A stretch of 64,000 nt of DNA from Armatimonadota bacterium (GTDB taxonomy: Bacteria > Armatimonadota > UBA5829), in NCBI GenBank assembly GCA_039679645.1, contig JBDKUO010000067.1, forward strand, positions 28,208 through 92,207, written 5' to 3'. The translations under genes and the position numbers were made by a program. Shown here piece after piece: positions 3,572 to 59,672 of the stretch. Under the pieces are notes generated by a model, which was given only the letters and a program-made list of their open reading frames with translations, made no database searches and was not told the origin of the DNA. The first letter of the stretch is position 1, and each line of letters opens with the position of its first letter.

Positions 3572-3610
3572 CCGACACATCCTGGTTTTCGGAAGTACAT
3601 ATCAAGTGGG
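3572..3610 (+). promoter_or_regulatory. Conserved ~40-bp phage promoter-like motif, copy 1 (core AGTACATATCAA 3593-3604)
   Basis: ccgacacatcctggttttcggaagtacatatcaagtggg; near-identical to three other copies, each in front of a + strand operon. Confidence 0.6.
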
Positions 3611-3661
3611 AGCGAAACCACGGGGATTCTCTTCCAGGCGCGCCATTTTACCCCGCACCAG

Positions 3662-41552: not shown

Positions 41553-41572
41553 CGATTGGAGAAGCGGAAAAG

Positions 41573-41875: not shown

Positions 41876-41878
41876 GCA

Positions 41879-42556: not shown

Positions 42557-42565
42557 GGTAATGAC

Positions 42566-42940: not shown

Positions 42941-42942
42941 AT

Positions 42943-43203
42943 ATGACAAGTTCAATTGCGCGGTTGGGCGACGGATCTGACCACAATGGAGTCATCATCA
43001 CCGCAGCAAGCCGCACGTTCATAAATGGGAAACCGGCTGCGCGCAAAGGTGACTTGCACTCTTGCCCGATGCACGGGATAACACCCATTATTTCCGGCAG
43101 CGACCGGCTCCTCATAGAAGGTCAGCCAGCCGCACGCGTGGGCGACTCGGCTGCATGCGGGGCAGTAATAACCTCCGGCAGTCCGGATACCAGTGCCGGT
43201 TAG
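42943..43203 (+). CDS. PAAR-repeat spike tip protein
   Basis: ARLGDGSDHNGVIITAASRTFINGKPAARKGDLHSCPMHGITPII...GQPAARVGDSAACGAVI. Confidence 0.8.
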   Translation: MTSSIARLGDGSDHNGVIITAASRTFINGKPAARKGDLHSCPMHGITPIISGSDRLLIEGQPAARVGDSAACGAVITSGSPDTSAG

Positions 43204-43220
43204 CATGAAAGGATAATAGA

Positions 43221-43811
43221 TTGTCCATACATTTATATATAGACGCGCAGCTTTCGCAACAGATTTCAGAGGGCGATCTGACAAATCCCGATTCCGATAC
43301 GTTCGATGGCTCGAACGGAGATAATAAAGATCGCCAGCTTTTTGTGGCAAACGAGCAGACAACTCTTGCCGAAGTATTGGATGCTGTTCAGTCAGCGATG
43401 GTTCTGGCAGTTCCACGCTTTAGTGACGGTGAAGTGATTATGATTGACTCGGAAGAAATGCGAGTCGTCTCTGGCGGAGGAACTACAACATTAATGGTCC
43501 AGCGTGCGCTCTACGGAACCCAGCCAGCGGCTCATGCGCAGGATGCGATAGTCTACAGCGCATGCAATTATTCCAGCCTGTTATTGGAACCGGTCGATAC
43601 CTCTGGAACAGACGAGTCCTCCTGGTGCAAACTGGCATTGACACAGGCCGGACTGGATGCAGCCGTGCCGGGTGGGGGTATTTTTCTGAGCGACAAAAGC
43701 TTCAACGAAACCATATCATTTTGGCGTCGGATCAGCGTCCCTGCAGGCATAAGCGCTCAGAAAAAGACGGACATCAAACTCAGGCTGACCGGGACAATGA
43801 GCCTGGCGTAA
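43221..43811 (+). CDS. Hypothetical baseplate/tail protein
   Basis: Position only. Confidence 0.3.
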   Translation: MSIHLYIDAQLSQQISEGDLTNPDSDTFDGSNGDNKDRQLFVANEQTTLAEVLDAVQSAMVLAVPRFSDGEVIMIDSEEMRVVSGGGTTTLMVQRALYGTQPAAHAQDAIVYSACNYSSLLLEPVDTSGTDESSWCKLALTQAGLDAAVPGGGIFLSDKSFNETISFWRRISVPAGISAQKKTDIKLRLTGTMSLA

Positions 43812-43826
43812 TCGAGGAGAAAAACT

Positions 43827-44813
43827 TTGGCAAATCACAGTTCATATCAGACGGCGAGCAATACCGCCGACCTGCTTGCAAAACTCAAGGATTTTTTAAC
43901 GAATACTTGCGGGTGGACCCTGCACGACGACGGCATGGGTCAGGCGCAGCCCTACTTCGTCGCATACTCAGCCGGAGAGTCAGGACAGGAAGATATATAT
44001 CTGCAGTTTATCGATGACTCCAGCACAAACATGATCTCCATCCGAGGAGCGCTTTACTGGGACGCAGCCAGTCATACAGCAGTGAAACCCGTTTATTCCG
44101 CATCGAACACCGGAATCGTCACGTCAGACTCTGCATCTTTCAACTGTTGGTTGTTTGGAAGTCTCGACAGAGTGTTTATCGTGACACGGATCGGCGCAAT
44201 TTACAACCCTCATTACAGCGGGCTTATCAAGCGATTCTGGTCGGAGCAGATTGCCGTAACACAGGAAGCAGCAGGAGTCGGAAGCGACATCACTGTTTCG
44301 GTAAATGACGCGTCGATTCTCACGCCCGGCAAGTATTATATTATAAAAGACAACACCAACATCACGCGGGTTCAGATCACTGCAACGGACCTGGTTTCCA
44401 ATCCAAACACAGTTACGATAGCCAATCTTTCGGCCGGTTACTCGGCAGGTGCAAAGATCGGGGAGGATCCGCAGCCCGTGATTATCGGCTACAGCAATCT
44501 GCCAGGCTGCCTTCTGCTGAACCGATATGATGGGTATGCCGGGCAATCGACCCACGTAGCATACGCCCGCGACTTTCAAAATTATCAGCTAAACAACTCT
44601 GACCCCGACAATAGATACGGCATGGTTGCAATGTTCCCGGTCTTCGTGACTTGTGAGGCGTCTAATTACAACGAACTGCGCGGTGAACTCATCGAGGTGT
44701 ACTGCATTGGGCCGGGCGCTGGAGCGTCCGAGGATGTCATAGACCTTGGAACATCTACTTATAAGATGTTCAACAACTCAGGCGGCAGCAGTTGGCTTGC
44801 AGTAAAAGAGTAG
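43827..44813 (+). CDS. Hypothetical structural protein
   Basis: Position only. Confidence 0.3.
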   Translation: MANHSSYQTASNTADLLAKLKDFLTNTCGWTLHDDGMGQAQPYFVAYSAGESGQEDIYLQFIDDSSTNMISIRGALYWDAASHTAVKPVYSASNTGIVTSDSASFNCWLFGSLDRVFIVTRIGAIYNPHYSGLIKRFWSEQIAVTQEAAGVGSDITVSVNDASILTPGKYYIIKDNTNITRVQITATDLVSNPNTVTIANLSAGYSAGAKIGEDPQPVIIGYSNLPGCLLLNRYDGYAGQSTHVAYARDFQNYQLNNSDPDNRYGMVAMFPVFVTCEASNYNELRGELIEVYCIGPGAGASEDVIDLGTSTYKMFNNSGGSSWLAVKE

Positions 44814-44935
44814 CGATATGGCAGCAAAACCCGGTAAACCTGTCAAAGTCTCTATCCCACGCGGCGCGTATGGTGTTCGTCAAAAGCTCTTTATACACAA
44901 TGGCAAAGCCATAAAGCTGAAAGGAATCATTTGGC

Positions 44936-45724
44936 GTGGCAACGCATAATGGCAAAAAGGCGGCTGTCCAAACTGCTGCAGGGGCTGTTACCCCCAGATT
45001 TCGATTTGCGGGGCTGCACAAGCCTGGAGTGCTCTACACATTTGAGGAAGCCGCAGGCGACGAGTTCGGCGTTCTTGGGGACATCTCGATTTTCGTTGCA
45101 GGCGGACACAGTACAGACTCGGATGTGCGCGTTGACGTGACTAACGCTGTGGTGATTGATGCTGACCTTGAGTTCACGATCACAAACGCTTTTGCCGCTC
45201 TTTGCGATCTGGAACTCATAGTAACAGAGCCGCTCACGATTACTGCCGATGTATCAATTCTGGTCATGTGGCCTGCAACTTCAAACGGCGGCGGTTCTAC
45301 AGGCGAGACCAATAATCCGGCATTGGAGTTTCTTGGCAAGGGTCTGAAGTATCCGTTCACTTTTCAGAAGCGGTCCGGCGGTGCACAGATATCGACCGCG
45401 ACATCATCAGATCACGCTCACATTCATGAGAGCATCCGACAGATACTTGGTACAAAAAAAGGCGAGCGGTTTATGAGACCTGACTTTGGAACTCGCCTTC
45501 ACGAACTGGTTTTCGAGCCAAATGACCAGCTCCTGTATGGTCTCATTCGACATGATGTTATCGAGGCTCTGTATGCATGGGAGCCGAGGATTATTGTCAC
45601 CGATGTTACTGTAGCAGCCGATGGCAGTGATGAGCACTTGGTGATTGTAAATATCAGTTACAGGCTTATATCTTCGCAGGTCGAGGGAAATATGGTCATC
45701 CCCTTCTGGCGCGAATTGGAGTAA
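44936..45724 (+). CDS. Baseplate wedge protein (GpW / gp25-like) with N-terminal extension
   Basis: C-terminal GERFMRPDFGTRLHELVFEPND...LYAWEPRIIVTDVTV matches gp25/GpW signature. Confidence 0.65.
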   Translation: MATHNGKKAAVQTAAGAVTPRFRFAGLHKPGVLYTFEEAAGDEFGVLGDISIFVAGGHSTDSDVRVDVTNAVVIDADLEFTITNAFAALCDLELIVTEPLTITADVSILVMWPATSNGGGSTGETNNPALEFLGKGLKYPFTFQKRSGGAQISTATSSDHAHIHESIRQILGTKKGERFMRPDFGTRLHELVFEPNDQLLYGLIRHDVIEALYAWEPRIIVTDVTVAADGSDEHLVIVNISYRLISSQVEGNMVIPFWRELE

Positions 45725-45727
45725 AGT

Positions 45728-47146
45728 ATGACAACCCGACGCGGCAGACTGCCGTATGTAGATAAAGATTATGATTCTATCCGTGAGGAGCTTATATCTC
45801 GGATTCCTCAACTCACTGAACGCTGGACTGACTTCAACTCGAGTGACCTGGGTGTAGTGCTCCTCGAGTTGTTCTCAGGGATCGCGGATATGCTCACATA
45901 CTATATCGACTCCCAGGCGGCCGAATGCTATCTTCCGACAGCACGGCAGCGGCAGAACATCATAAATCTGTGCTCACTGATAAGCTACAAGCTCCATGGA
46001 CCAATTGCTGCAAGCACTCAAGTTCAGTTCACACTGGATCAGGCGTTGACATGCGGCATCCTGATTCCATCCGGCACGGCGCTCCTGGCGCCGGACGAGG
46101 CCCTCGAGGTGCCCTTCATCACCGTTCAGGATGTGAGCATCCCCGCTGGTCAGACTCAGTGTGATGTGGATGCAATCCAGGGTCAACTCGTGATAGAAGA
46201 GTTTGTAAGCACCGGTATCGCCTGCTCAAGTATAAAACTGGCCCGCACGGATGTGGCACACGGCTCTATTCAAGTGTCGGTATCCGGCGTTGAGTGGACA
46301 CAGGTCGAACACTTCGTCGAAAGCAGTTCTGACGATACGCACTACGTTCTTGCTACAGACGGATTGGACAATGTGTCTATCATATTCGGCGACGGCAAGA
46401 ATGGAGCTTTCCCTGGTAATGGAAAACAGATACAGGTAACGTATCTGGCGACGTTTGGTTCCGACGGCAATCTCGCGCCTCACCGGATTACGAAGATGCT
46501 GTCTACCATATATATGCAAAGCGGCGAGAGCGTGCGTTTTACAATTGACAACCCCATCGCGGCAACGGGTGGGGCGGACAGGGAATCGCAGGAGCATGCA
46601 AAGCTCGTGGCCCCGGCTACCGTGAAGTCCACCTGGAAAGCTGTGACAAGGGATGACTACATTGCTCTGTGTCTTGCGTTCCCAGGCGTGGCTAAGGCTA
46701 AGATTCAGGACATAAATGATGATCCCGGCCTGCTGATCTACAGCGTCAGGATTTGTATCGCGCCGGAGGGCGGCGGGCTGCCGTCGCCTCTCTTGAAGTC
46801 TCAGATCCTCGACTATCTTGATTCGAGGCGGCTTCTGACGATAGATGCTGGTATAGTCGATCCGGTCTACATTGCGGTCGATGTCAGTGCCGATCTCTAC
46901 ATATACCCAGGTGAGGTTATTGAAACAGTCCGTGAGCGGGCACAACAGGCACTGGAAAATTACTTCGACTTCGATAACCAGGACTTCGGACAAAAGCTTT
47001 ATCTGTCCGACCTGATAGTGCTTCTGGACGGAGTGCAAGGTGTGAGCCATGTGGTCCTTCGTGAGCCATTCGCGGATGTTCTTCCAGGAATACGCGAGAT
47101 ACCGGTTCTAGGCAGCGTGGCGCTCACCATAGCGGAGGTGCAGTGA
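45728..47146 (+). CDS. Baseplate J-like protein
   Basis: 472 aa following gpW-like gene; Baseplate_J-like layout. Confidence 0.7.
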   Translation: MTTRRGRLPYVDKDYDSIREELISRIPQLTERWTDFNSSDLGVVLLELFSGIADMLTYYIDSQAAECYLPTARQRQNIINLCSLISYKLHGPIAASTQVQFTLDQALTCGILIPSGTALLAPDEALEVPFITVQDVSIPAGQTQCDVDAIQGQLVIEEFVSTGIACSSIKLARTDVAHGSIQVSVSGVEWTQVEHFVESSSDDTHYVLATDGLDNVSIIFGDGKNGAFPGNGKQIQVTYLATFGSDGNLAPHRITKMLSTIYMQSGESVRFTIDNPIAATGGADRESQEHAKLVAPATVKSTWKAVTRDDYIALCLAFPGVAKAKIQDINDDPGLLIYSVRICIAPEGGGLPSPLLKSQILDYLDSRRLLTIDAGIVDPVYIAVDVSADLYIYPGEVIETVRERAQQALENYFDFDNQDFGQKLYLSDLIVLLDGVQGVSHVVLREPFADVLPGIREIPVLGSVALTIAEVQ

Positions 47147-47685
47147 TGAAGCCATTTGCCGAGAGATTGTTGGAAATGCTGCCTGACATATATGCGGAAT
47201 GCGATACCTCCGGGGATTTAAAGGCGCTGCTTGCAGTAATAGGGCCAACACTTGATGAACTGAAATCCCGCATAGACGGCATTACCAGTCTTGCGTCACC
47301 TGTCGATTGTCTGCCGGATTTCCTGGCGTATCTTGCTGCCTTAATCGGTGCAACGTTTGACACGACGACGAGCCCGACGCCTCAGCGCAGGAGTATTCAG
47401 GAAGCCATAGAGAGATACAGGCGCACCGGCACTACAGCCGCGCTTGTCCGAGACCTTGCCAGGCTAGGCTGGGCAGGCGAAATAGTCGAGACTTACCATT
47501 CGGTTCTACGCCTGAATTACAACGCGAAACTCAATCACCAGAAACTGCCGGGCATAAAATACAACCACGGGATTTATGGAATTACTCAGCCACTGGAGGA
47601 TAGTGAGTTCCTGGAGATAGCCGCCAGGCACCAGCCGGCAGGAACAATTTGTTGGATCGAAGAGGAGGAGATTGAAATATCATGA
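47143..47685 (+). CDS. Tail protein I (P2 gpI-like)
   Basis: LLEMLPDIYAECDTSGDL...LPDFLAYLAALIG pattern; 180 aa; position. Confidence 0.55.
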   Translation: MMKPFAERLLEMLPDIYAECDTSGDLKALLAVIGPTLDELKSRIDGITSLASPVDCLPDFLAYLAALIGATFDTTTSPTPQRRSIQEAIERYRRTGTTAALVRDLARLGWAGEIVETYHSVLRLNYNAKLNHQKLPGIKYNHGIYGITQPLEDSEFLEIAARHQPAGTICWIEEEEIEIS

Positions 47686-49397
47686 CCGACAGTACATTCG
47701 ACGCGGCTAGAAACTACAAGAAAATCTGCTACAGGGTGGACAGGGACCTCTTGAATACCGAACTCAACGAAGCCCAAGACATAGCGGCTCACGAAAGAAT
47801 GGCCCTCCTCGATAAGATTCTAGCGCCGGGGACGATCCTTTCGGGCTTGGTGGGAACTGTAGCTGGCAGCGATGTGACAATTGCCGATGGTATCGTCTAT
47901 ATCGACGGCTGCGCTGTGAATGTTCCTGGCGCAGCGCTGTCGTTTCCAGCGTCCGGCGACTACATTATATATGTGGATGTGTTCCGCAGAGAGGTCACGG
48001 CATCAGAAGATGCGTCCCTCGTGAATCCGCTCACCGGAGAGCCGACAGCAGAACGAGAGAAATGGATCGCCGCGCTGCAGACACGCGATACGTCAGGTGA
48101 TCCGCTCCCAGAGGGAGCGCTGTCCAGAACAGTTGTGCCGGTGTACACCTTTGATGTCGACACAGGAGAACTTCGACCATATGTCTGCATCTCCAGTCAA
48201 GGCAGCGACATCCTTTCGATACTGGCGGATCACATCGGTCATGCCGGACTGGAACGCCACCCGGCTGTAAGTTCAGAATCCGCTGGTTTCATGACACCGA
48301 CCCAGCTTGCCGATCTTGAATCCAAGGCTGAGAATACCGACCTGACAGCCCTATCGAGCGCTCTGAACACACACAAATCATCATCCGATCACGACGGCAG
48401 GTATTTTACCGAGACCGAGTCCAATGCGAACTTCGCTCCGAAATCCCATGTCGGTTCGGGCGGCACAGCTCACTCGAATGCAACTACTTCAACTGCGGGA
48501 TTTATGGCACCTGCTGATAAGACTCAAATTGGCGACCACGAGACACGTATCGATACAATAGAGGCTGCACTGCCCGGAAAAGCTGATAATGCGGACGTGA
48601 CCGCTGTCTCCAATGCCTTGAGCGCACACAAATCGTCATCAGATCATGATGGCCGATATTACACAGAAACCGAATCCAATGCCAACTTTGCTCCACACTC
48701 ACACATCGGTTCCGGCGGCACGGCTCACTCAGATGCAACCACATCCGACGCTGGTTTTATGGCACCGGCGGACAAGACCCAGCTTGCAGATCATGAGACC
48801 AGGATAGACGCAGTTGAGGCTGCGCTCCCTGAGAAGGCCACAGAAGTTGAACTGCAGGTGCTTGCGACTGCATTTACCTGGCACAGGACATCTAATGACC
48901 ACGATGGGACATATTACCCTAAAACAGAGTCCAATGCCAGATATTCGCCCCTGCGCTACTTCCAGGACCAGATGAAATGGTACTGCGGATACAGCTATGA
49001 TGGCGTCAGTTTGTTGGAATATGGAGTAATGTCCGCGAATAACGGCATGATCTGGCAGGGCAAGTGCGACGCCAACTCCGAGCATAAATTAATGACTCAC
49101 CTGAAAGCTACGTCATACACGATAACAGCGCTTTTCGAGTTCTATCACATAACCGGCACCCTGACAATGGAAACCGGCAGCAGGGTAACCCTCGGTGACC
49201 CCGGCACGTATCCGCCGAAGGTTCCGGGAGGCAAAATATATCTGGTGCAAATCTATCCCGACAGCTACACAAATGCGATTATCCATGTGTCCGGATCGGG
49301 GGATGTAGGGTTCAGTCTGAATATTTTCCCGGGCGATAACCGCCAGCTTTGCCGTGCATTCGATCCCGGCCATGAAGACGACCAGTCGTATACATAG
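47682..49397 (+). CDS. Tail fibre protein with three tandem ~67-aa repeats
   Basis: Repeats SSDHDGRY(F/Y)TETESNANFAP(K/H)SH(V/I)GSGGTAHS(N/D)ATTS.AGFMAPADKTQ..DHETRID..EAALP x3 (approx nt 48370-48960). Confidence 0.65.
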   Translation: MTDSTFDAARNYKKICYRVDRDLLNTELNEAQDIAAHERMALLDKILAPGTILSGLVGTVAGSDVTIADGIVYIDGCAVNVPGAALSFPASGDYIIYVDVFRREVTASEDASLVNPLTGEPTAEREKWIAALQTRDTSGDPLPEGALSRTVVPVYTFDVDTGELRPYVCISSQGSDILSILADHIGHAGLERHPAVSSESAGFMTPTQLADLESKAENTDLTALSSALNTHKSSSDHDGRYFTETESNANFAPKSHVGSGGTAHSNATTSTAGFMAPADKTQIGDHETRIDTIEAALPGKADNADVTAVSNALSAHKSSSDHDGRYYTETESNANFAPHSHIGSGGTAHSDATTSDAGFMAPADKTQLADHETRIDAVEAALPEKATEVELQVLATAFTWHRTSNDHDGTYYPKTESNARYSPLRYFQDQMKWYCGYSYDGVSLLEYGVMSANNGMIWQGKCDANSEHKLMTHLKATSYTITALFEFYHITGTLTMETGSRVTLGDPGTYPPKVPGGKIYLVQIYPDSYTNAIIHVSGSGDVGFSLNIFPGDNRQLCRAFDPGHEDDQSYT

Positions 49398-49540
49398 AAT
49401 AACAAACACACTCTGACTGGATAATCCGCGTGTCAATACCAGTTTCTCGCTGAACACTCTCAATTGACTTGACATCCCTGCGTGTTCGAGGTAATTCATC
49501 ATTGGTGATGAACACTACCAGATCAATACGGAGGTATCAA

Positions 49541-50217
49541 GTGATAGATTTTCGTGAACTGAAATTCGGAGTGGAGATAGAGACTACCGGCAAGTCGCGC
49601 GGAGCCGTGGCTAAGGGGATCCAGTCCGTGGTCGGCGGCACCATTGAGCATACAGGTCAGCCCGCTGCCTACGATCCTCACACGGTAACAGATCCAAATA
49701 GCAGACAATGGAAAGTGGTTGCCGACGCGTCACTATCCGATGCACCTGCCAACCTTAGAGCTGAGATAGTAACGCCTATTCTTACATATCGGGACATACC
49801 TGTGCTGCAGGATGTTGTCAGAGCCGTGCGCAGAACAGGCGCGCAGGCCACACAGACCTGCGGGTGCCATATACTGTAGATGGTTCGCATTTCGATGGCC
49901 GTACCCTCGCCAACCTCATGAAGATCTTCTATAAGCAGCAGGAGCTTATCATCCAGGCACTCGGTGTTAGAGCGGACAGGCTGGCTAAATATACCAAGCG
50001 GATCGATCCTGACCTGATAAGGAGAATAGACTGCAAGCGCCCCAAGACGCTCGATGAGATGAATAAGCTGTGGTATGGCGCATTCAATTCCTCACCACAG
50101 CACTATGATAGCCAACGCTATTATGTTGCGGCTCGAATTATGTTGCGCCGGGCCGCGATTCGTGCGGCCCGACTGCGGATTGCGCTACATAATATATCAC
50201 CCTGCCGTATTTGGTAA
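49541..50217 (+). pseudogene. Amidoligase_2-like (glutamine synthetase-fold COOH-NH2 ligase) gene, frameshifted near 49864-49879 and C-terminally truncated by RIT insertion
   Basis: N-terminus VIDFRELKFGVEIETTGKSRG (FGxExE); ...TQTCGCHIL* then -1 frame continues VDGSHFDGRTL...; last ~36 codons are encoded by the RIT-1 terminal inverted repeat. Confidence 0.5.
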
Positions 50218-50266
50218 TGGAGCTTCGGATTGGTTCCGGGGCTTACATTAACCAAGAGGTGTTTCT

Positions 50267-51523
50267 ATGTTGGAATATTACTTTAGCGATCCCACTCGGC
50301 TGCGCCAGCTTCGTCGTGGGCCGCTCGTCCAGTATCTGGACGGCATGGCTGCCGAATTGCGACGGCACGGCTATCAGAAGACCACCGGAGTCAACATCCT
50401 GGGATTGGCCGGACAGTTCAGTCGGTTCCTTTCCACCTGCGGGATCTCCGATGCCAGCGAAATCAGCGAGGAACTGGGACAGAAGTTCGTTGATGAGGAA
50501 CTTGTGCCCATGGGAGTTTTTCGCGGAGCAGCCAATGCAATCGTCCACGTTCTCAGGTATCTCAGACAGTCCGGCATCATAGCAGAGGTCGAGAAACCGC
50601 ATGTAGATGACCCTTGCGCGGATATCATCAAGCGCTACATCACCTATCTACGCGATATTCGTGGTCTGAGCTTTGCTACCTGCGATGGCTACACACGATC
50701 CGTACGACGCTTCCTCGCTTTTCATATCGAGCGCCATAAGAAGTTGGAATTCTCGGCTCTCGATGGCCCCGAGGTACTCGACTATATAACCACTTGGGCA
50801 AACTACGCCTCCAGCCGGTCCTGGGTACACAACCTTGCAACCAACACACGCTCGTTCCTGGGATTCTTACGCTGGGAAAACCTCATTGACCGCGATCTTG
50901 AGCGTGTTGTGCCGTCACTACGCCGGTGGCGACTGGCCACGGTTCCCAGCCATCTACCTTGGGAACAGGTTCGCGAGATAATTGACGGCGTGAATGCCGC
51001 TTCGCCCGAAGGCATGCGCGACCGGGCTATTCTGCTCTTGCTTGCCACGCTTGGGCTGCGAAACTACGACGTGCGCACGATGGAATTCTCACACATCGAC
51101 TGGCGTGAAAGCGTGATTCGCCTGCCGAAAACCAAGAACTTGCGCGCTCGCGTTCTACCGATGTCGCAGGAGCTGGGCGAAGCCATTGCCGACTACATTC
51201 TCAATGGCCGCCCACACACCGATTTGCCCTTCGTATTTATCCGCCACAAGGCGCCTGTCAGTGCGTTCACCACATCCCCCGCCATAACGGGTATTGTGCA
51301 AAGACATGTAAAGCGTCTTGGTATTCCGACATGGGCCGGTCATCGCGGTTCTCACCTGCTGCGCCACAGCTTGGCGAGCAAGATGGTCAACTCAGGCTCT
51401 TCCATAAAGGGAGTCGCCGACATGCTCGGCCACGCCTGTATAGACACCACGGCCATATACACGAAAGTCGATACCGTTCACTTGATGGAGGTTGCATTGC
51501 CGCTACCCGGAGGAGTGAAATGA
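50267..51523 (+). CDS. Tyrosine recombinase RitA-like (element 1)
   Basis: 418 aa; RDRAILLLL, HLLRHSLASK, TAIYTKV catalytic motifs. Confidence 0.8.
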   Translation: MLEYYFSDPTRLRQLRRGPLVQYLDGMAAELRRHGYQKTTGVNILGLAGQFSRFLSTCGISDASEISEELGQKFVDEELVPMGVFRGAANAIVHVLRYLRQSGIIAEVEKPHVDDPCADIIKRYITYLRDIRGLSFATCDGYTRSVRRFLAFHIERHKKLEFSALDGPEVLDYITTWANYASSRSWVHNLATNTRSFLGFLRWENLIDRDLERVVPSLRRWRLATVPSHLPWEQVREIIDGVNAASPEGMRDRAILLLLATLGLRNYDVRTMEFSHIDWRESVIRLPKTKNLRARVLPMSQELGEAIADYILNGRPHTDLPFVFIRHKAPVSAFTTSPAITGIVQRHVKRLGIPTWAGHRGSHLLRHSLASKMVNSGSSIKGVADMLGHACIDTTAIYTKVDTVHLMEVALPLPGGVK

Positions 51524-52485
51524 GCAACTATTGCTTTCGAAGCATCTTTGCCGAATACCTGATAAGATACATCAACCTGCGGCGCAGCTTCGGTTTGAAG
51601 TTCGCCAGTCAGTCAGGCATCCTACATAAGTTCGACGGCTACGTTTATGACCTTAGCCACACTGGGCTGCTTACACAAGAGTTAGCGATTGGGTTTGCCA
51701 CTGCCAACCCGAATGTTACTGCTCAGGAATGCGCTCGTCGCTATGCTACCATACGTAACTTCTCGGACTTCCTTGCCACGTTCGAGCCGCAGACACCACT
51801 TCTGGATCCCAAGGCTCTGTATGCGCGGCGGGTGCGTCCGCCTGCACATATCTATTCGGAAGAAGAACTCGTTCGCCTGCTCGAACTTGCCAAGCGGATC
51901 GCGCCAAAGAATCCTATGAGAGGGTTTGCCTTACATGCAATGGTCGGTCTGGCCGCAGGAACCGGTCTGAGGATTAGCGAAGTGGTTGCTCTTGACCGTG
52001 CGGATGTGGACATGAAATCGGGTGTCATAATGGTGCGGCGCACGAAGTTTTTCAAGGACCGCCTGGTGCCGGTGCATTCAACTGTTCTGGCAGTTCTTAA
52101 TCAGTATGCTCGCCTGCGCGACGCGGCACATCCCCAGTCGCAGAGCCCGGCGTTCTTTCTTCACCAATGGGGACGACGCTTCTCGAAGCATACTCTGCAG
52201 ATGACCTACTGGGATCTTACTCGACGTGCAGGGTTGCGGGGTGACAGCGGAGACGGCCCCACATTCCATGATCTTCGCCACACCTTCGCTGTCAGGAGAT
52301 TGGCCGCATGGTATCGAGAAGGCAAGGATGTGAATGCCATGCTGCCCATGCTGGCGACATACATGGGCCACGCTCATTACACCGATACCGCCTACTATAT
52401 TACGGCGATCCCCGAACTGATGGAACTTGCTGCCCAGCGCGCACGAACAAGCCAAACAAGTTCGGACAAGGAGGCAACTCGATGA
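51520..52485 (+). CDS. Tyrosine recombinase RitB-like (element 1)
   Basis: 321 aa; ATGA overlap with previous; HDLRHTFAV, TAYYITA. Confidence 0.8.
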   Translation: MSNYCFRSIFAEYLIRYINLRRSFGLKFASQSGILHKFDGYVYDLSHTGLLTQELAIGFATANPNVTAQECARRYATIRNFSDFLATFEPQTPLLDPKALYARRVRPPAHIYSEEELVRLLELAKRIAPKNPMRGFALHAMVGLAAGTGLRISEVVALDRADVDMKSGVIMVRRTKFFKDRLVPVHSTVLAVLNQYARLRDAAHPQSQSPAFFLHQWGRRFSKHTLQMTYWDLTRRAGLRGDSGDGPTFHDLRHTFAVRRLAAWYREGKDVNAMLPMLATYMGHAHYTDTAYYITAIPELMELAAQRARTSQTSSDKEATR

Positions 52486-53492
52486 GCGCAAAGCCTCAAA
52501 CTCTAGCAACCCTCATCGAAAGCTACTTCAAACAGCGACTGATAGCTCAACGGCACTCAAGCCGAGAGACGATTGCCTCTTACCGGGAGAGTTTACGGCT
52601 TCTTGCCGTATTTGCATCCGAGTGTTTACATACGGCTCCAGAGAAGCTGACCATTGAGAATCTCGACCGAGAGGTAGTCCTTGCTTTCCTAGATTACCTT
52701 GAACAGACACGCTGCAACTGTATTCGCACCCGCAACAGTCGTCTAGCCGCAATCCGCTCGTTCCTTAAGTATGTGGCGTATTTGGACCCAACTGCAATGG
52801 GCGTGGTTCAGCGAGTATTGGCAATACCGAGTAAGAGAACGGTCAAGCCGATACTTGGATATCTTACCCGAGAAGAACTCGATGTTCTTCTCAGCGTTCC
52901 GGACCGCAACAGCAGACAAGGACGCCGTGACTATGCGCTGTTGCTCTTTATGGCTCGCACCGGCGCGCGAGTATCGGAAGCTGTTGGGGTCAACGCGAGT
53001 GACCTGCGTTTGAATCATCCATGTCAGGTGCTTCTGCGTGGAAAAGGCGGAAAGGAGCGTGTTACGCCGATGAAATCTGACATTTCGGATATCTTGAACA
53101 CACTTTGCGGGGAAATGAATATTGCGCCAAACACAAATGCCGCTGTCTTCGTCAGCATGGCCGGCAAACGGCTCACGCGTCACGGAGTCACACATTTGAT
53201 GCGGCGCACCGTACCCATAGCGGTTGCGAACATGCCGATACTGGCAAGGAAGACGATCACGCCTCACACCCTTCGTCATACTACAGCAATGCACCTGCTG
53301 CAGGATGGAATCGATCTGAATATGATTCGTTCATGGCTGGGACATGTCAGCCTCGACACGACTCATCAGTACGTTGAGGCTGACGTGGAGATGAAACGTT
53401 GTATATTAGAGCAGTGCGGGGTAGTTGAAGCCGGGCAGATGCGCTACCAACCAACGGACAAATTGTTGGCACTACTGGAGAGCCTGTGCTGA
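52482..53492 (+). CDS. Tyrosine recombinase RitC-like (element 1)
   Basis: 336 aa; ATGA overlap; HTLRHTTAMHL, THQYVEAD. Confidence 0.8.
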   Translation: MSAKPQTLATLIESYFKQRLIAQRHSSRETIASYRESLRLLAVFASECLHTAPEKLTIENLDREVVLAFLDYLEQTRCNCIRTRNSRLAAIRSFLKYVAYLDPTAMGVVQRVLAIPSKRTVKPILGYLTREELDVLLSVPDRNSRQGRRDYALLLFMARTGARVSEAVGVNASDLRLNHPCQVLLRGKGGKERVTPMKSDISDILNTLCGEMNIAPNTNAAVFVSMAGKRLTRHGVTHLMRRTVPIAVANMPILARKTITPHTLRHTTAMHLLQDGIDLNMIRSWLGHVSLDTTHQYVEADVEMKRCILEQCGVVEAGQMRYQPTDKLLALLESLC

Positions 53493-53569
53493 TTATTATG
53501 TGACGCAAATCGAGTGCCGGGCCGCACGAATCGCGGCCCGGCGCAACATAATTCGAGCCGCAACATAAT

Positions 53570-53599
53570 AGCGTTTATGTAGCGCGCTACATAAACGCT
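53570..53599. repeat. Perfect 30-bp palindrome agcgtttatgtagcgcgctacataaacgct at outer edge of RIT-1; related palindrome ttatgtggcgcgccacataa at 53859-53879
   Basis: Read directly; both lie in the 310-bp spacer between the two RIT elements. Confidence 0.8.
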
Positions 53600-54112
53600 A
53601 CTGTGTTTTGAACCTTTCCTCTATGTTCTATAGAGGCAGCATAGAGATGAGGGCTGCGAATTCCACACTGCACGCTGGAGTAATCCGAGGTTATGTGACA
53701 TTCGTGCTTGCACTCGCCGCGAAGGCTCTAAACAATCGCTGCGCATCCGGACGACCCAGAGAATACAATCCCCAGAGTGCTAAGTATGACTTTCGGGTCT
53801 TTGCATGCATCAATCTCGGGCTTATAGGCGATGAGTTCAAAAATGTGAGAAAGCACCTGTTATGTGGCGCGCCACATAGCAAGTGTTATGCGTCGCGTGC
53901 GATTATGTGGCGTCGGGTGCTTTTTCAGGCTCCCCGACGCCGGTTTTGCGATACATAACAATCCCTACCAGATGATTCACGCTTGGTTCGGCAAATAAGT
54001 CAAGTGCAATCTGAAAGGGATGGGGCTGTATATGAAAGCTTATGCAGAGCCGTATTCCTTGTGGAGGCTCGGATTCGCCCGGGTCTTACATTGTTTCTCT
54101 AGGAGACAAAAC

Positions 54113-55357
54113 ATGCTGGAGTATTACTTCAAATCACCAATCAGAATTCGTCAGTTGCGTTGCGGCCCCATCGCACCTTATCTGGACGGACTTGCTGCGC
54201 GCCTGCATCAGCGGGGTTACTGCTATGGTCAGGCTCACACCATTTTGGGACTTGCTGGCGACTTCAGTCGCTACCTGTCACTAATAGGCATCGGCGACGT
54301 TCACAAGATCACAGAGGACCTTGCCCATCGCTTTTCCGGTGATTTTGCCTCGCACGGTGACTACGAGAAGACCGGTAATATGTTGACCCATCTATTGAAC
54401 CACCTGCGTGACGAGGGTATTGTGCCGGTTCTGGAACAAGAGAGTTCTGCGGATGATCCATTTACAGACATCATCTCACGATATGAGGATTACTTGGCAA
54501 ATGTGCGCGGAGTCGTCGTTAAGACCAGGATATACAGTCGGTCCGCCAGGCGTTTTCTGGATTTCCATCTCAGGCGCCATGGCTGCTTGGATCTTAGAAA
54601 AGTGGACGGTCCACAGATATTGGATTACATTGCCTACTGGGCAAATGTCTCTCAAAGTCGGACCTGGGGACAAATGCTGACCACATGTACCCGGTCATTC
54701 CTGCGGTTTTTGCGCTGGGAAAGCATTGTCGAACAAGACCTAGACCGAGTCGTACCATCCATATTTCGCTACCGACTAGACACGATTCCCAAACACCTGC
54801 CCTGGCAACAGGTGCGAGCGTTAATCGACGGTATGGAGACGCTTTCGCCGCGGGGAAGGCGTGATAAGGCAATCCTGCTGCTACTTGCGACACTCGGACT
54901 CCGCTGTATGGACGTTCGAGATCTCCAACTGGACAATATCATATGGCGCAAGTCCGAGATACACCTGCCGAAGACTAAAAGCATGCGCGCTCGTGTTCTG
55001 CCGCTTACTCAGGAAGTCGGTGATGCCCTGACCGACTATGTCATCCATGGGCGTCCCGCACACAATTCGCGGTATGTATTTCTTACTCACAATGCCCCCA
55101 TAGTGCCCATATCTTGTGAGGCAGTCACGGCCATTGTGTCAAGGAACATCAAACGCGCAGGCATACCAGCCCCTCATTATGGCGCCCACATGCTTAGACA
55201 CAGTCTTGCGGCCAAGATGGTGAATGAGTCAAGACCAATCAAGGAGATAGCAGACATGCTTGGGCACGTCAGCATCGACACTACGGCCATTTATGCCAAG
55301 GTTGACACTACTCATCTGGCGACCGTGGCTCTGCCTTTTCCAGGAGGTGCAAGATGA
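54113..55357 (+). CDS. Tyrosine recombinase RitA-like (element 2)
   Basis: Paralog of 50267-51523 (MLEYYF.. N-terminus, HMLRHSLAAK, TAIYAKV). Confidence 0.8.
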   Translation: MLEYYFKSPIRIRQLRCGPIAPYLDGLAARLHQRGYCYGQAHTILGLAGDFSRYLSLIGIGDVHKITEDLAHRFSGDFASHGDYEKTGNMLTHLLNHLRDEGIVPVLEQESSADDPFTDIISRYEDYLANVRGVVVKTRIYSRSARRFLDFHLRRHGCLDLRKVDGPQILDYIAYWANVSQSRTWGQMLTTCTRSFLRFLRWESIVEQDLDRVVPSIFRYRLDTIPKHLPWQQVRALIDGMETLSPRGRRDKAILLLLATLGLRCMDVRDLQLDNIIWRKSEIHLPKTKSMRARVLPLTQEVGDALTDYVIHGRPAHNSRYVFLTHNAPIVPISCEAVTAIVSRNIKRAGIPAPHYGAHMLRHSLAAKMVNESRPIKEIADMLGHVSIDTTAIYAKVDTTHLATVALPFPGGAR

Positions 55358-56319
55358 GCTACAAATGTCGCAGTTTCCTTGCAGCTTATCTAGAATCCTA
55401 CATCAACCTGCGGCGCAAGCTCGGATGCCAGTTCAGGCAGCAGGCAAATACTCTGCACGAGTTCGACCGATACCTGTGTAAGCACGAATCAGTCGCTAAG
55501 CTGACGCAGGATTTGGCTGTGGATTTCGCCACGTACCGCCCTGAGCTAAGTTCGAAGCATTGTGCTAATCGCTACAACTTTGTACGCAACTTCTCCAGGT
55601 ATCTGGCTGCATTTGAGCCTGAGACTCCACCTTTGAGTCCGAAAGTCCTTTGTCCTCAAAACACTCAGCCTCCGGCCCACATCTATACCGAGTCTGAACT
55701 CGCGCTGCTTCTTCAGTCGACCATGAAATTGACTCCCCAGCACCCAATGCGAGGGCTGACGTTCAGAACAATTATTGGCCTCGCGGCCAGCACGGGGCTG
55801 CGAAACGTGGAGGTAGTCAATCTTGACAAGGCAGACGTGGATTTGGGGTCTGGAGTTCTCCTGGTGCGCGGGACCAAATTCCACAAAGAACGAATTGTGC
55901 CGGTCCATCCTACCACGCTTGTTGAACTGACGAGCTATGCTCGTCTGCGTGATGTTTCGTTTCCCGAGCCGCAAACCCCTGCCTTTTTCCTTAATATGAG
56001 AGGCTGTCGTATTCAGACCCACACAATACAGTGCACATTCTGGAGGCTTACCCAGATCGCCGGACTGCGAGATGAAAGCGGCAAAGGTCCGAGATTTCAC
56101 GACTTGCGCCACACATTCGCGGTTAAAAGGATGGCGAGATGGTATCGCGAGGGAGTTGACGTCCAAGGATTGCTACCTCTGCTTGCCACCTACATGGGAC
56201 ATGTCCACTACAGCAATACCGCATATTATATCACCGCCGTCCCCGAACTGATGGAGCTTGCTACTCAGAGATATCAGACCGCACAGAATACAAGCGGCGA
56301 TGTGGAGGCAAGCAAATGA
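55354..56319 (+). CDS. Tyrosine recombinase RitB-like (element 2)
   Basis: Paralog of 51520-52485; ATGA overlap. Confidence 0.8.
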   Translation: MSYKCRSFLAAYLESYINLRRKLGCQFRQQANTLHEFDRYLCKHESVAKLTQDLAVDFATYRPELSSKHCANRYNFVRNFSRYLAAFEPETPPLSPKVLCPQNTQPPAHIYTESELALLLQSTMKLTPQHPMRGLTFRTIIGLAASTGLRNVEVVNLDKADVDLGSGVLLVRGTKFHKERIVPVHPTTLVELTSYARLRDVSFPEPQTPAFFLNMRGCRIQTHTIQCTFWRLTQIAGLRDESGKGPRFHDLRHTFAVKRMARWYREGVDVQGLLPLLATYMGHVHYSNTAYYITAVPELMELATQRYQTAQNTSGDVEASK

Positions 56320-57323
56320 GCAAAGTTTCTCCGACACTAGGCGACATGCTCGAAAGCTACTTTCGCCGTCGACTGATAACACAGCAACGAGCCAGCATCG
56401 AGACTATTCGCGGGTATCGTGACGCTCTTCGACTGCTAGTAATTTTTGTCGCCGAGCAGCTACAGACGGCTCCCGAGCGCTTGAGTATTCAAGACCTGGA
56501 CCGCGACGTGATTCTGGCATTCCTCGACCACTTGGAGGATTTTCGGCATAATTGCGTACGCACGCGCAATAACAGGCTGGCCGCAATCCGAGCGTTCATG
56601 CAGTATGTGGCCTACATGGACCCGGGAGCGCTGGGTGTGGTACAGCGGGTACTAGCCATTCCCAATAAGAAGTACGTCAAACCAATTCTTGGCTATCTCA
56701 CCCGCGAAGAACTGGACGTTCTGCTCAATGTGCCGGATCAGGCAACAAGACAGGGGCGGCGGGATCATGCCTTGCTTCTGTTTTTCGCGCGGACTGGCGC
56801 ACGTGTTTCAGAGGCTGTCAGGGTGAATGCGGTGGATATCTGCTTGAACTCACCTTGCCAGGTTCTGCTGCACGGAAAGGGTATGCGGGACAGGTCGACT
56901 CCAGTTGCTACAGACTTGGTGGCCGCGCTTCGCTCATTGTACGAGGAACGCCGTATTACCACAAGCGACAATGTGCCGGTATTCGTCAGTGCGACCGGAC
57001 AGAGGCTGACCAGATACGGGGTCACGCATATGATCCGACGGATGGTCGCCACAGCGGCTGAGCGGAATTCAAGCATTGCCGGACGCAAGATAACGCCACA
57101 TACTTTGAGGCACACGACGGCCATGCATATGCTCCAGTCAGGTGTAGATTTGAACATGATCCGATGCTGGCTTGGACACGTCAGCCTCGATACCACCCAC
57201 CATTACATAGAAGCCGATGTTGAAATGAAACGTCGAGCACTGGAACAAAGCGGCGTGGTTGCACCACGGCAGGCGCGCTACCAGCAGACGGACAGGATAC
57301 TGACAATACTGGAAAACCTGTGA
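56316..57323 (+). CDS. Tyrosine recombinase RitC-like (element 2)
   Basis: Paralog of 52482-53492; ATGA overlap. Confidence 0.8.
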   Translation: MSKVSPTLGDMLESYFRRRLITQQRASIETIRGYRDALRLLVIFVAEQLQTAPERLSIQDLDRDVILAFLDHLEDFRHNCVRTRNNRLAAIRAFMQYVAYMDPGALGVVQRVLAIPNKKYVKPILGYLTREELDVLLNVPDQATRQGRRDHALLLFFARTGARVSEAVRVNAVDICLNSPCQVLLHGKGMRDRSTPVATDLVAALRSLYEERRITTSDNVPVFVSATGQRLTRYGVTHMIRRMVATAAERNSSIAGRKITPHTLRHTTAMHMLQSGVDLNMIRCWLGHVSLDTTHHYIEADVEMKRRALEQSGVVAPRQARYQQTDRILTILENL

Positions 57324-57478
57324 GGATTATGTAGCGCAAAACCGGCGTCGGGGAGCCTGAAAAAGCACCCGACGCCACATAATCGCACGCGACGCATAAC
57401 ATCTGCTTGCTAACCTCCAGGGCGACTCGGCATTCAAGTATGGCCGCAAATCCAAAAAAGCTAAGGAGGCGGCAGTCA

Positions 57479-57694
57479 ATGCATAACATCAGGGTCCTAG
57501 TTCCGAAAGCAGTTATGGACGGCATGCTGGCTATTCGTAGCTCAGGCAGAACTAATATGTTCGACTTATCTGAAGTAGTGCGCATCGCGGTTGAACTCGA
57601 TTATATAGAAACTGCGATGCGGATAGAGAACAATCGCGCCAAATTCTGCCTTGGGATATTTCACGGATTCAAAGTAATGGAAGGAGAGCGCTGA
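57479..57694 (+). CDS. Small hypothetical protein upstream of amidotransferase (ORF open from 57407)
   Basis: 72-95 aa ORF; could alternatively be displaced C-terminal remnant of the disrupted operon. Confidence 0.25.
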   Translation: MHNIRVLVPKAVMDGMLAIRSSGRTNMFDLSEVVRIAVELDYIETAMRIENNRAKFCLGIFHGFKVMEGER

Positions 57695-58488
57695 TGTGTG
57701 GACAGACTGGGGTCATCTATGGACCAAAAAAGAGACAGTCGGAGGAGCAGACATATCTGAAGTGGCTTTTTATACATTTGCTGCTATTGAGTGAGAGGCG
57801 AGGACCTTTCGCGACCGGTCTTGCCTGGCTGAAAAAAGATGGCAGTCACTGCATTTTCAAACGTCCGATGCGCGCAGTTGAGTTTGTGAAGATGAAACAG
57901 TTTGTTGATGCGATAGCCTATGTTGACAACTCAACGACCTGGCTTGCCGGACATACCCGCTGGCCTACACGCGGTTCGATAGAGAGAATTGAAAATGCAC
58001 ATCCCATTCGCTCGGGATATGTCTTGGGCACTCATAACGGCACTATTGCAAATGCAGACGAATTGTTCAAAGAGTTTGACCTGCCAAGGTTTGCTGAGGT
58101 AGACAGCGAGATAATCTTCAGAATGACCGATGCTGATATGAAGAACGGTCGTATCGATACCGATGTGCTCAAGAGCCGACTCGCCCTTTGCAGTGGGCAG
58201 ATAAGCGCGGTAATGGCATCTAAGCTCGATCCCCAAATTGTAGTCGTGGTAAAGGGCAATATGCCCCTGGAATTGAGATATCATCCGGAGCACAGGGTAG
58301 TAGTATATGCCTCAGATTCCACGTATCTCAATACCGCGCTTTCTCGTGAGAAGGGCTGGCGACGGATAGCAGCGAAACCTATGAGCATAATGACTTTTCA
58401 CATTGACAACCTGCCGAATTTTGAAAGCGTGCCGTTTCGGTTAGCCGGAGTGTCTGTTGCTAACTTCGAGCGTTTTACAGGTCGGTAG
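57694..58488 (+). CDS. Class II (Ntn) glutamine amidotransferase domain protein
   Basis: N-terminal MCGQ (Cys2 nucleophile after Met removal), GHTRWPTRGS (HxRxxTxG), HNGTIAN; 264 aa. Confidence 0.7.
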   Translation: MCGQTGVIYGPKKRQSEEQTYLKWLFIHLLLLSERRGPFATGLAWLKKDGSHCIFKRPMRAVEFVKMKQFVDAIAYVDNSTTWLAGHTRWPTRGSIERIENAHPIRSGYVLGTHNGTIANADELFKEFDLPRFAEVDSEIIFRMTDADMKNGRIDTDVLKSRLALCSGQISAVMASKLDPQIVVVVKGNMPLELRYHPEHRVVVYASDSTYLNTALSREKGWRRIAAKPMSIMTFHIDNLPNFESVPFRLAGVSVANFERFTGR

Positions 58489-58586
58489 GCTCGAAAATAT
58501 GAATATTGTCTGTGAGTCCCCAGGAGAAATCCGTATGAATCTGTCTGCCTTCTGGGGACAAGAATTTATCACAGAGAGTGATACTT

Positions 58587-59672
58587 CTACAGTCCGAGAG
58601 CATCCGCGCTGTTTTCTTCGAACAGACGGCCCAGACGGATATATCTCTTCAATGAACTGATGGATTTATGCCCGGTCTGTTGAGCAATAATGTGCTCAGC
58701 CACACCGGCTCTGCTTGCCTGAGTGCAGTGACCGGACCTCAGTGAGTGCCCGCTGTATTTCTCAGGGTCCAGCCCTGCTGCATTTGCAGCTCTTTTGACA
58801 ACCGTCCCTATCGCTCTTCTTGAAAGCCTGTCGGACACTAGATTGTTATATCTATCGAGTCCTCGGAAGATTGCACCCTCTGTAATCTGAGATATCTCCA
58901 ACCAGCGCTCGAGTGCAGCTACCGGGCAGGTATCGAAATTCTTGCCACGGGGGATACCCACTAATCGACCCTCTCCCTGCTGGTCGGTTTTACTTCGCCT
59001 CAGAAGAATAACAATACCTTCATCCCGATAGTTGATGTCAGCGACATTCAATCCAACGATTTCTGAGCGCCTGAATGCTCCGGCGAAACCTATGAGGATT
59101 ATTGCTTTGTCACGTATACCGAGAAATGTATCCGGCAGTGCCTCTACCATCCGCTTGATATCTTCCGACAGCAGAGCATCCACCGGCTTTGGCGGGCTGC
59201 CTATCTTCCTCGTCATTCCGTGCAGCAATTCTTTTATTGCCGGGTGACTTGTCGGGGTTGGATATCCGGCCTCACGATGAGCTGCGGCTATTGCGGCACA
59301 GTGTCTGCGGATAGTTGTAATGCGGAAGTTCTTCATCGCTAGTGATGTGAAGTAACAGCCGACAACATCCGGTGATGAAGGCATATAAGGAAGAGCGTGA
59401 CTTATACACCACCGCTCAAAGCCCTTCCAGTCACGCGCATATATCTCTTTCGTGGAATCGGCAATGGTGGTTGTGAGGAAGTTTTGAGCGTTTTCGAGGA
59501 GTTCAAGAAGCTCGGAATCAGCCCCCTCCGCAGCTTCCTGGAACACAATATTTCTGGTAGTCAGTGTAGCATGAGAATCTGTCATTTGCAAGCATTTTCT
59601 TCGCATTTCGGCAATTTTTCGGCCCGATAGTGCGATGAAAGGAGTTGCCGTGACCCTGAAGCATAAACGCAA
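58587..59672 (-). CDS. Tyrosine recombinase / phage integrase (likely start at 59585)
   Basis: RRSEIVGLNV, GHSLRSGHCTQASRAG, GHKSISSLKRYIR catalytic motifs. Confidence 0.8.
   Translation of the reverse strand: MRLCFRVTATPFIALSGRKIAEMRRKCLQMTDSHATLTTRNIVFQEAAEGADSELLELLENAQNFLTTTIADSTKEIYARDWKGFERWCISHALPYMPSSPDVVGCYFTSLAMKNFRITTIRRHCAAIAAAHREAGYPTPTSHPAIKELLHGMTRKIGSPPKPVDALLSEDIKRMVEALPDTFLGIRDKAIILIGFAGAFRRSEIVGLNVADINYRDEGIVILLRRSKTDQQGEGRLVGIPRGKNFDTCPVAALERWLEISQITEGAIFRGLDRYNNLVSDRLSRRAIGTVVKRAANAAGLDPEKYSGHSLRSGHCTQASRAGVAEHIIAQQTGHKSISSLKRYIRLGRLFEENSADALGL

Follow-up and report, generated by a model that had tools for sequence, protein, structure and literature searches.

Sequence evidence that two diverged recombinase-in-trio elements split one prophage amidoligase gene in an Armatimonadota genome

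We analysed a stretch of 64,000 nucleotides, hereafter the window, from an Armatimonadota bacterium (GTDB lineage Bacteria; Armatimonadota; UBA5829; assembly GCA_039679645.1, contig JBDKUO010000067.1, positions 28,208 to 92,207 of the forward strand). The host contig, of 115.6 kb, belongs to a metagenome-assembled genome (MAG). Two recombinase-in-trio (RIT) elements, RIT1 and RIT2, were found close together in the window, with pieces of a prophage Amidoligase_2 gene to the left of, between and to the right of them. From left to right, the gene pieces and genes were as follows (window positions; aa, amino acids).

49469 to 50120, plus strand: N-terminal part of the Amidoligase_2 gene, ending ...HYDSQRY; matches PF12224 profile positions 2-115 and 117-206 and is colinear with intact homologues
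50267 to 51523, plus strand: ritA1, 418 aa; PF00589; 39% identity to Mesorhizobium RitA (E 1e-86)
51520 to 52485, plus strand: ritB1, 321 aa; ATGA overlap with ritA1; PF00589; 43-44% identity to RitB
52482 to 53492, plus strand: ritC1, 336 aa; ATGA overlap with ritB1; PF00589; 48% identity to RitC
53601 to 53859, plus strand: middle piece of the amidoligase gene (CVLNLSS...NVRKHL), between both insertions
54113 to 55357, plus strand: ritA2, 414 aa, or 445 aa from an upstream ATG at 54020, from which the reading frame is open; PF00589
55354 to 56319, plus strand: ritB2, 321 aa; PF00589
56316 to 57323, plus strand: ritC2, 335 aa; PF00589
57406 to 57486, plus strand: 3' end of the amidoligase gene (LANLQGDSAFKYGRK... 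to the stop codon), continuing the same protein after RIT2
Target stretch of the amidoligase gene: CAGCACTATGATAGCCAACGCTACTGTGTTTTGAACC

The open reading frames (ORFs) to the left of RIT1 matched positions 2-206 of the Amidoligase_2 profile, and the ORF starting right after a 32-bp palindrome at the right end of RIT1 matched positions 209-244. When positions 50121-53600 and 53860-57405 were removed in silico (50120 joined to 53601, and 53859 to 57406), a protein of 317 aa was restored, once one frameshift near 49870 had been corrected. This protein was 76-77% identical, over its full length, to the intact homologues P0121 and P0122, and was colinear and ungapped at both junctions with these two, with phage amidoligases and with others. 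The excised DNA aligned with the uninterrupted locus L039, in which gene order is alike, at 74% identity over 978 nt and with no gap through either junction. The insertion points were located at ...HYDSQRY/CVLNL... for RIT1 and, 259 bp downstream, at ...RKHL/LANL... for RIT2. Judged by these alignments, RIT1 and RIT2 both split one prophage Amidoligase_2 gene. The original prediction had placed a 310-bp spacer between the two units; the gap between the facing inverted repeats (IRs) is 302 bp and is no spacer, as 259 bp of it (53601-53859) are amidoligase coding sequence from the middle of the doubly interrupted gene.

The prophage context was apparent on both sides, with baseplate-wedge, tail and tail-fibre genes (DUF4815) at 40227-49397 and, downstream (57407-59672), a DUF5049 gene, a GATase_6-type amidotransferase gene and a minus-strand tyrosine integrase gene (58587-59672) near the presumed prophage end. 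Besides both insertions, the N-terminal part of the amidoligase gene carries the frameshift mentioned above, at 49864-49879, in a conserved CGCHIHVDG stretch; it reflects either continued decay of an already dead gene or a mistake in the assembly.

All six proteins encoded by the two trios matched PF00589, the tyrosine-recombinase catalytic domain, and an ATGA stop/start overlap was found at all four internal gene junctions, in line with the overlaps of 4-8 bp, typically ATGA, known for RIT genes. The sizes of 418/321/336 and 414/321/335 aa agree with the ATGA-coupled genes of about 415, 321 and 336 aa first described. An alignment of the six recombinases with known RitA, RitB and RitC proteins had been proposed as a check of the identity of the elements. 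When run by blastp against the trios of Mesorhizobium amorphae pM0123d and Sinorhizobium NGR234, it grouped the proteins class by class, with identities of 37-39% for RitA, 43-46% for RitB and 47-48% for RitC. Same-class matches had E values of 1e-80 to 1e-105 at 93-99% coverage, whereas cross-class matches were much weaker (1e-14 or worse), and the window RitC aligned over its full length with that of Mesorhizobium (98% coverage). Since the six proteins pair as RitA/B/C orthologues of the rhizobial RITs, both units are, by this protein-level comparison, RIT elements, and their initial naming as such stands.

Identity between RIT1 and RIT2 was 54% for RitA, 57% for RitB and 64% for RitC, versus 24-31% between classes, and the IRs of the two units differ as well, in agreement with their description as paralogous and clearly diverged. 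As protein identity is only 54-64%, and both the IRs and the insertion sites differ, the pair is, on these comparisons, not a duplication. An HxLRH motif was present in all six proteins; LGH-x8/9-Y was found in RitA and RitC, and its equivalent in RitB was MGHAHY(T/S)xTAYY. By alignment, the catalytic R...HxxR...Y residues are present in all three protein classes, their presence being no proof of activity.

An AlphaFold2 model of RitA1 (pLDDT 84) comprised two helical bundles (residues 1-101 and 118-203) followed by the catalytic domain (232-409). This predicted structure agrees with the two sequential core-binding domains published for RitA (PMC8138268). Its fold matched XerA, XerD, XerH, IntI, the Tn1549 integrase (Int) and Cre in a search of the PDB, over about 290-340 of its 418 residues. 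In NCBIfam, the best partial matches of the Rit proteins were to XerC, XerD and XerA. All six proteins scored far under the thresholds curated for XerC, XerD, XerA and the integron integrases, and an identity as XerC/XerD chromosome-dimer resolvases was rejected on these scores (the best were 163 bits for XerC, where 335 are required, and 160 bits for XerD, where the cut-off is 330). GmtY gave only a faint match (E about 1e-4).

The ends of the two elements are described below, with O for the hexamer at each junction with the target, O' for the inner hexamer, P for the palindrome, IR-L and IR-R for the left and right IRs, and sites 1 to 3 for the 10-bp motifs within an IR.

50115 to 50120, plus strand: hexamer O (ACGCTA) at the left junction of RIT1, a 6/6 direct repeat of 53595-53600; putative crossover (overlap) region
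50121 to 50192, plus strand: IR-L of RIT1, with site 1 TTATGTTGCG (50121), site 2 TTATGTTGCG (50138), a GC hairpin and inverted site 3 CGCTACATAA (50183-50192)
53496 to 53568, plus strand: IR-R of RIT1, with site 3' TTATGTGACG, hairpin, site 2' and site 1' CGCAACATAA
53569 to 53574, plus strand: inner hexamer O' of RIT1 (TAGCGT), the reverse complement of O
53575 to 53594, no strand: element-borne palindrome P1, TTATGTAGCG followed by CGCTACATAA, that is, two extra inverted 10-bp motifs
53595 to 53600, plus strand: hexamer O (ACGCTA) at the right junction of RIT1, just outside the palindrome
53854 to 53859, plus strand: hexamer O (CACCTG) at the left junction of RIT2, a 5/6 match with 57400-57405
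53860 to 53879, no strand: element-borne palindrome P2, TTATGTGGCG followed by CGCCACATAG, on the ritA side
53880 to 53885, plus strand: inner hexamer O' of RIT2 (CAAGTG)
53886 to 53958, plus strand: IR-L of RIT2, with site 1 TTATGCGTCG, site 2 TTATGTGGCG, hairpin and inverted site 3 CGATACATAA
57327 to 57399, plus strand: IR-R of RIT2
57400 to 57405, plus strand: hexamer O (CATCTG) at the right junction of RIT2

With these boundaries, the mobile units span 50121-53600 (RIT1, 3480 bp) and 53860-57405 (RIT2, 3546 bp). The hexamer ACGCTA, found at both junctions of RIT1, occurs once in the restored gene. RIT2 is the mirror case of RIT1, whose P is at the ritC end: in RIT2, P is at the ritA end, and the order reads target, CACCTG, palindrome, CAAGTG, IR-L ... 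IR-R, CATCTG, target. The IRs were reproduced by computation, with corrected lengths. Those of RIT1 (50114-50171 and 53518-53575) are identical over 58 nt and extend, diverged and with a 1-nt indel, to 50192 and 53496, while those of RIT2 (53878-53958 and 57327-57407) are identical at 78 of 81 positions; the longest perfect run is 67 nt in RIT2, and perfect cores of 56 and 66 nt had been given for the two units.

Both palindromes were present too, each with a correction: the 30-bp palindrome first described lies within a perfect palindrome of 32 bp (53569-53600), and the string given for the second carried one wrong base, the sequence at 53860-53879 being TTATGTGGCGCGCCACATAG, which ends ...CACATAG and is perfect over 18 bp (53861-53878). 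These were the only perfect palindromes of at least 14 bp in the window. Shuffled windows gave palindromes of up to 18 bp, never near 32 bp, so that the 18-bp palindrome is exceptional by its content and position and not by its length alone.

The 10-bp word TTATGTNGCG occurred 11 times in the window, always at RIT ends, for an expected number of 0.39. When near-variants were counted, each unit had eight copies of the motif, three in each IR (two direct and one inverted) and two in the palindrome. In IR-L, two direct motifs TTATGNNNCG stand 17 bp apart and are followed, after about 35-45 bp, by the third, inverted motif. The likeness between palindromes and IR ends noted originally is thus explained by a shared building block, and this common motif makes the palindromes very probably recombinase-binding sites, as had also been proposed. 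Motif 2 and inverted motif 3 of each IR can pair in single-stranded DNA around a GC-rich inner hairpin (50138-50192; 53903-53958; positions 3374-3439 of the Mesorhizobium locus L015). As a family feature, this GC hairpin was dropped (z = -3.15 in RIT1, -1.8 in RIT2 and -0.1 in L004).

The layout of the ends was then compared in 13 RIT copies brought to a single orientation: RIT1 (W1), RIT2 (W2), L002, L004-L007 (all in one genome of 5.18 Mb), L018, L030, L032, L036a, L015 (Mesorhizobium) and L025 (Phaeobacter), the last two being canonical alphaproteobacterial elements. All 13 copies, from Armatimonadota to Alphaproteobacteria, read B - O - site 1 ... site 1' - O' - P - O - B', where B and B' are the target arms. 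The two O hexamers matched at 6/6 positions in eight copies, at 5/6 in two, at 4/6 in two and at 3/6 in one, and P was at the ritC end in seven copies and at the ritA end in the other six. The same layout was seen, on inspection by eye, in Methylovirgula (L017) and Tardibacter (L028). For proteobacterial RITs, a palindrome that overlaps the end of one IR has been reported (PMC3414803); P1 and P2 show this feature, and so do L015, L017, L025 and L028.

Several observations bear on the origin of P. It adjoined unrelated flanks in L006, L018, L030 and L032; it matched the motifs of its own element, and it varied with the element and not with the target. Furthermore, P and O together measure 26 bp and would shift the frame of any intact target gene, so that they cannot be native coding sequence. 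On this comparison of copies, P belongs to the element and travels with it. [quoted passage not shown] The side taken by the single P thus goes with the target and not with the direction of the rit genes. Three copies had other flanks: L008 and L010 were flanked by two inverted C-terminal amidoligase parts, with P on both sides, and L009 by two inverted N-terminal parts, with no P. Such flanks are what recombination by inversion should yield when two amidoligase genes carry RIT copies in opposite orientation; this has evidently taken place here, and the outcome fits the polarity rule.

The hexamers themselves varied. In L004-L007, four identical RIT copies at different loci of one genome, CCGCTA and ACGATA swap between the O and O' positions, and the two junction hexamers differ in L006, L007, L036a, W2 and L025. 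Both the swapping and the differences would be accounted for if mismatched overlaps were tolerated and two cores were used alternately. Site 1 varied at positions 6-9, while the halves of P were close to TTATGT(G/A)GCG; this systematic difference hints that different Rit subunits may sit on the two halves of a core.

The HYDxxRY site of the amidoligase was used, in either orientation and in different metagenomes, by at least four RitA lineages that are at most 56% identical to one another (W1 and L002; L004 and L007; L008, L009, L010 and the P0012 contig; L036a), which identifies these codons, on sequence comparison, as a RIT insertion hotspot. Two more recurrent targets were seen on plasmids: a zincin-like metallopeptidase gene, probably of ArdC type, was split at its HExxH codons in L025 and L028, and IS66 tnpB at DPF/SG in L013-L017, which are rhizobial and Methylovirgula plasmids. 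A tyrosine-integrase gene was the target in L032-L034 and a Y2-transposase-like gene in L021. Targets known from the literature include radC, IS66 and the Tn6049 transposase. Together, these targets suggest a mainly parasitic lifestyle, in which RITs exploit other mobile elements by integrating at conserved motifs in their coding sequences.

One of the related elements, L002 (3043-10252; also seen in L003), carries cargo, namely an intact Amidoligase_2 gene of 308 aa (3286-4212) located between IR-L and ritA. The element itself splits a resident phage amidoligase gene at the RY site, and so seems to come with a spare of the very gene that it disrupts. The P0012 contig has the same gene layout as L002, with a RitA only 51% identical, and an IS21 element was observed inside ritB of L002.

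A second, independent tandem pair of RITs was found in another amidoligase gene from another metagenome (L036, 1-5650; JGI 3300057039). There, the first element, at the RY site, is followed by a 69-aa amidoligase fragment and then by a very different RIT, whose RitA is 32-35% identical to all others. The palindromes of the two elements face each other 214 bp apart, compared with 265 bp in the window, where the geometry is the same; the second element of L036 lies about 20 codons upstream of the second site in the window, at a different codon. Such pairs could arise if a resident RIT, with its bound recombinases and conserved motifs, drew a second RIT to a nearby pseudo-site. Besides the facing palindromes of both pairs, this possibility is favoured by the poor resemblance of the RIT2 target arms to the motifs of the element (3/10) and by the RIT clusters noted on pHG1 and pNGR234a. 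However, there are only two examples. Moreover, the amidoligase is a general RIT hotspot, so that double hits may simply come from how common the target is and from relaxed selection on a gene already disrupted. We regard attraction as possible and rather doubtful.

The reading that we prefer, and consider probable, is that two diverged RITs inserted independently into one amidoligase gene, each through a palindromic, double-core attachment site (attP) with crossover in the hexamer. The two ends of an element would be joined, most simply in an excised circle, to give a junction IR-R - O' - P - O - IR-L, which would be about 200 bp long, perfectly or almost perfectly palindromic, and would contain two core sites in mirror image. 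For RIT1, the predicted junction reads ...CGCAACATAA TAGCGT TTATGTAGCGCGCTACATAA ACGCTA TTATGTTGCG... Each core would consist of a half-site of P, 6 bp, and the outermost motif of the IR, a geometry like that of dif, lox or an attP core. Strand exchange by the Rit recombinases would take place in the 6-bp hexamer, one core recombining with the target B - O - B', and the products would be B - O - site 1 ... on one side and ... P - O - B' on the other, exactly as observed: both junctions keep a hexamer, and one end receives P. Mismatched hexamers would be tolerated and would then segregate, like the coupling sequences of Tn916-type elements. As either core could serve, both orientations of the rit genes relative to P and the target would arise. 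Site 1 and the P half may be bound by different Rit subunits, as by XerC and XerD, the remaining motifs being accessory.

Several points weigh against this mechanism. Both insertions precisely split a gene that has an uninterrupted homologue; excision products, circle junctions and empty sites of the same population were not observed. The pattern expected of a circle junction (site 1' - 6 - P - 6 - site 1) gave no match in metagenome contigs. With a pattern for the integrated form as control, one chance match, in a queF-like gene, was obtained in metagenome contigs and none in viral contigs; known positives, L010 among them, were missed and no true RIT was recovered, so that these scans of public contigs had no power either way. 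In a mobilome study (PMC5737581), RIT DNA withstood exonuclease but yielded no reads across a circle junction, and hairpin intermediates were proposed; RIT transposition has never been reproduced in the laboratory (PMC10214605). The target arms match the element motifs at only 3-7 of 10 positions; arm similarity was rejected on these counts as the basis of target choice. The RIT2 site is without a second example. Clear IR ends were not found by automatic IR search, which gave at most chance seeds, in the RITs of Bacteroides (L027), Rhodococcus (L026) and Dinoroseobacter (L029).

A hairpin or linear intermediate is a less likely route. The palindrome P, with its GCGC or GCGCGC centre, would then be a site like those of telomere resolution, at which the joined ends would be cut and sealed to give a linear RIT with closed hairpin ends; integration would proceed from there, or else the ends would fold in single-stranded DNA, as attC and the CTX attP do. 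The tel sites of N15/TelK type have a comparable (CG)n centre, and P with its surroundings folds strongly as a hairpin (z = -3.6). If true, this route would explain the exonuclease protection of ritABC DNA without a circle junction, from which the authors of the mobilome study suggested hairpins; it would also give the third recombinase a role, and RITs would be the first transposons moving through hairpin telomeres made by a tyrosine recombinase. However, the integrated layout, with a full P on one side, none on the other and a direct hexamer repeat, is predicted by a conservative crossover at one core and not by the joining of hairpin ends. The fold of RitA is that of Xer, IntI, Tn1549 Int and Cre, and no telomere resolvase was present among the top 50 PDB matches of RitA1. 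As a palindromic junction of about 200 bp is hard to recover with short reads, the negative mobilome result can be explained without hairpins. We consider this route unlikely.

Two further explanations are very improbable. That the trios are not mobile here, being resident recombination or inversion modules or decayed relics, might be argued from the single copy of each in the MAG and from the want of experimental transposition, but the six ORFs are intact with catalytic motifs, the two IRs of RIT1 agree at all 58 nt of their core, each insertion interrupts with precision a gene found intact in other genomes, and related elements are identical at four loci of one genome. That the palindromes are pre-existing host sequences to which RITs home, as the original prediction had suggested in taking them for possible target sites, would agree with their position against the IR ends and their likeness to IR motifs, but removal of each unit with its palindrome leaves an intact frame, colinear with uninterrupted amidoligase homologues that have no palindrome, the 26 bp of P and O would otherwise shift that frame, and P varies with the element while its flanks may be unrelated; the real target is the coding sequence of the prophage Amidoligase_2 gene.

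RIT elements are widespread, with thousands of Rit homologues in a protein search. Each window RIT is present as a single copy in the MAG, on one contig. Many RitA homologues were observed on contigs of about 3.4-3.5 kb that begin and end within IRs (including L011, L020, L035 and L037); such element-length contigs are what assemblers make of multi-copy repeats, which fits RITs repeated in many genomes. A megablast of the 7.5-kb RIT region against plasmids gave no match, and RitA1, as a single query against genome contigs, gave one distant, irrelevant match only. The term 'RIT' in a paper on REP sequences was set aside, as it denotes Rho-independent terminators and not recombinase trios.

The kind of element is in itself unsurprising. 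How RITs move, a long-open question, nevertheless becomes directly testable at the bench: the mobile unit can be delimited to the base, a candidate attachment site is at hand (IR-R - O' - P - O - IR-L, with two mirror-image cores), and natural targets are defined, namely about 40 bp around the amidoligase HYDxxRY codons, the DPF/SG position of IS66 tnpB and the HExxH codons of the plasmid zincin-like gene. The prediction is a crossover in the hexamer, with mismatches tolerated and orientation set by the core used. In addition, at least one RIT lineage appears to carry a spare copy of the gene it breaks.

Among known systems, the telomere resolvases TelN, TelK and ResT resemble RITs in that they have a catalytic domain of tyrosine-recombinase type and act on a perfect palindrome. 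They differ in that the integrated layout of RITs needs no hairpin formation; the top 50 PDB matches, in which neither fold nor sequence of a telomere resolvase appeared, concern the RitA1 model only. Tn554, SE and GInt elements also need several tyrosine-recombinase-like proteins together and integrate site-specifically, and elements of this type carry a 6-bp footprint from the donor flank (PMC10214605). In contrast to RITs, they have partners of TnpC, Srap or Tfp type, no long IRs or palindrome, and usually cargo, whereas most RITs have none.

The integrases of Tn916/Tn1549 and CTnDOT type are closer in the presumed exchange: it is staggered across about 6 bp, a match between element and target is not needed, and the junction hexamers may differ and travel on. 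Tn1549 Int was itself among the structural matches of RitA1. These elements, however, use one integrase and Xis, have short, imperfect ends and lack both a one-sided palindrome and a recombinase trio; for RITs, a heteroduplex circle is only putative. With XerC/XerD at dif, and with elements that use dif-like sites, RITs share two different, related half-sites around a 6-bp centre, an analogy that suggests two different recombinase subunits at one RIT core. They differ in that the RIT recombinases are encoded by the element, each end has extra accessory motifs, and the putative attachment core is double and mirror-symmetric.

The closest comparison is with the RITs already described (Van Houdt 2009/2012; Ricker 2013), for which the ATGA coupling, the IRs, the palindrome at one end and the disruption of genes of other mobile elements have been published. 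The window elements share with these the order ritA-ritB-ritC, the three distinct subfamilies, the ATGA overlaps, a length of about 3.5 kb, terminal IRs and insertion into genes of other mobile elements (radC, IS66 and the Tn6049 transposase in the published cases), and the Mesorhizobium element has the same 10-bp motif and the same palindrome, TTATGTGGCGCGCCACATAA. They are thus members of a known element type in a new host and a new target, an Armatimonadota MAG and, in a prophage setting, the HYDxxRY codons of a phage Amidoligase_2 gene. The base-exact anatomy, the hexamer repeats, the polarity rule of P, the double-core joined ends and the amidoligase hotspot were not found in the accessible literature, the study of Ricker et al. 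(2013, Plasmid 70:226), which may overlap in part, being outside its scope. That literature described RIT ends as variable and unconvincing and gave both target specificity and mode of movement as untested, whereas here the boundaries, the hexamer repeats and the polarity of the palindrome are resolved.

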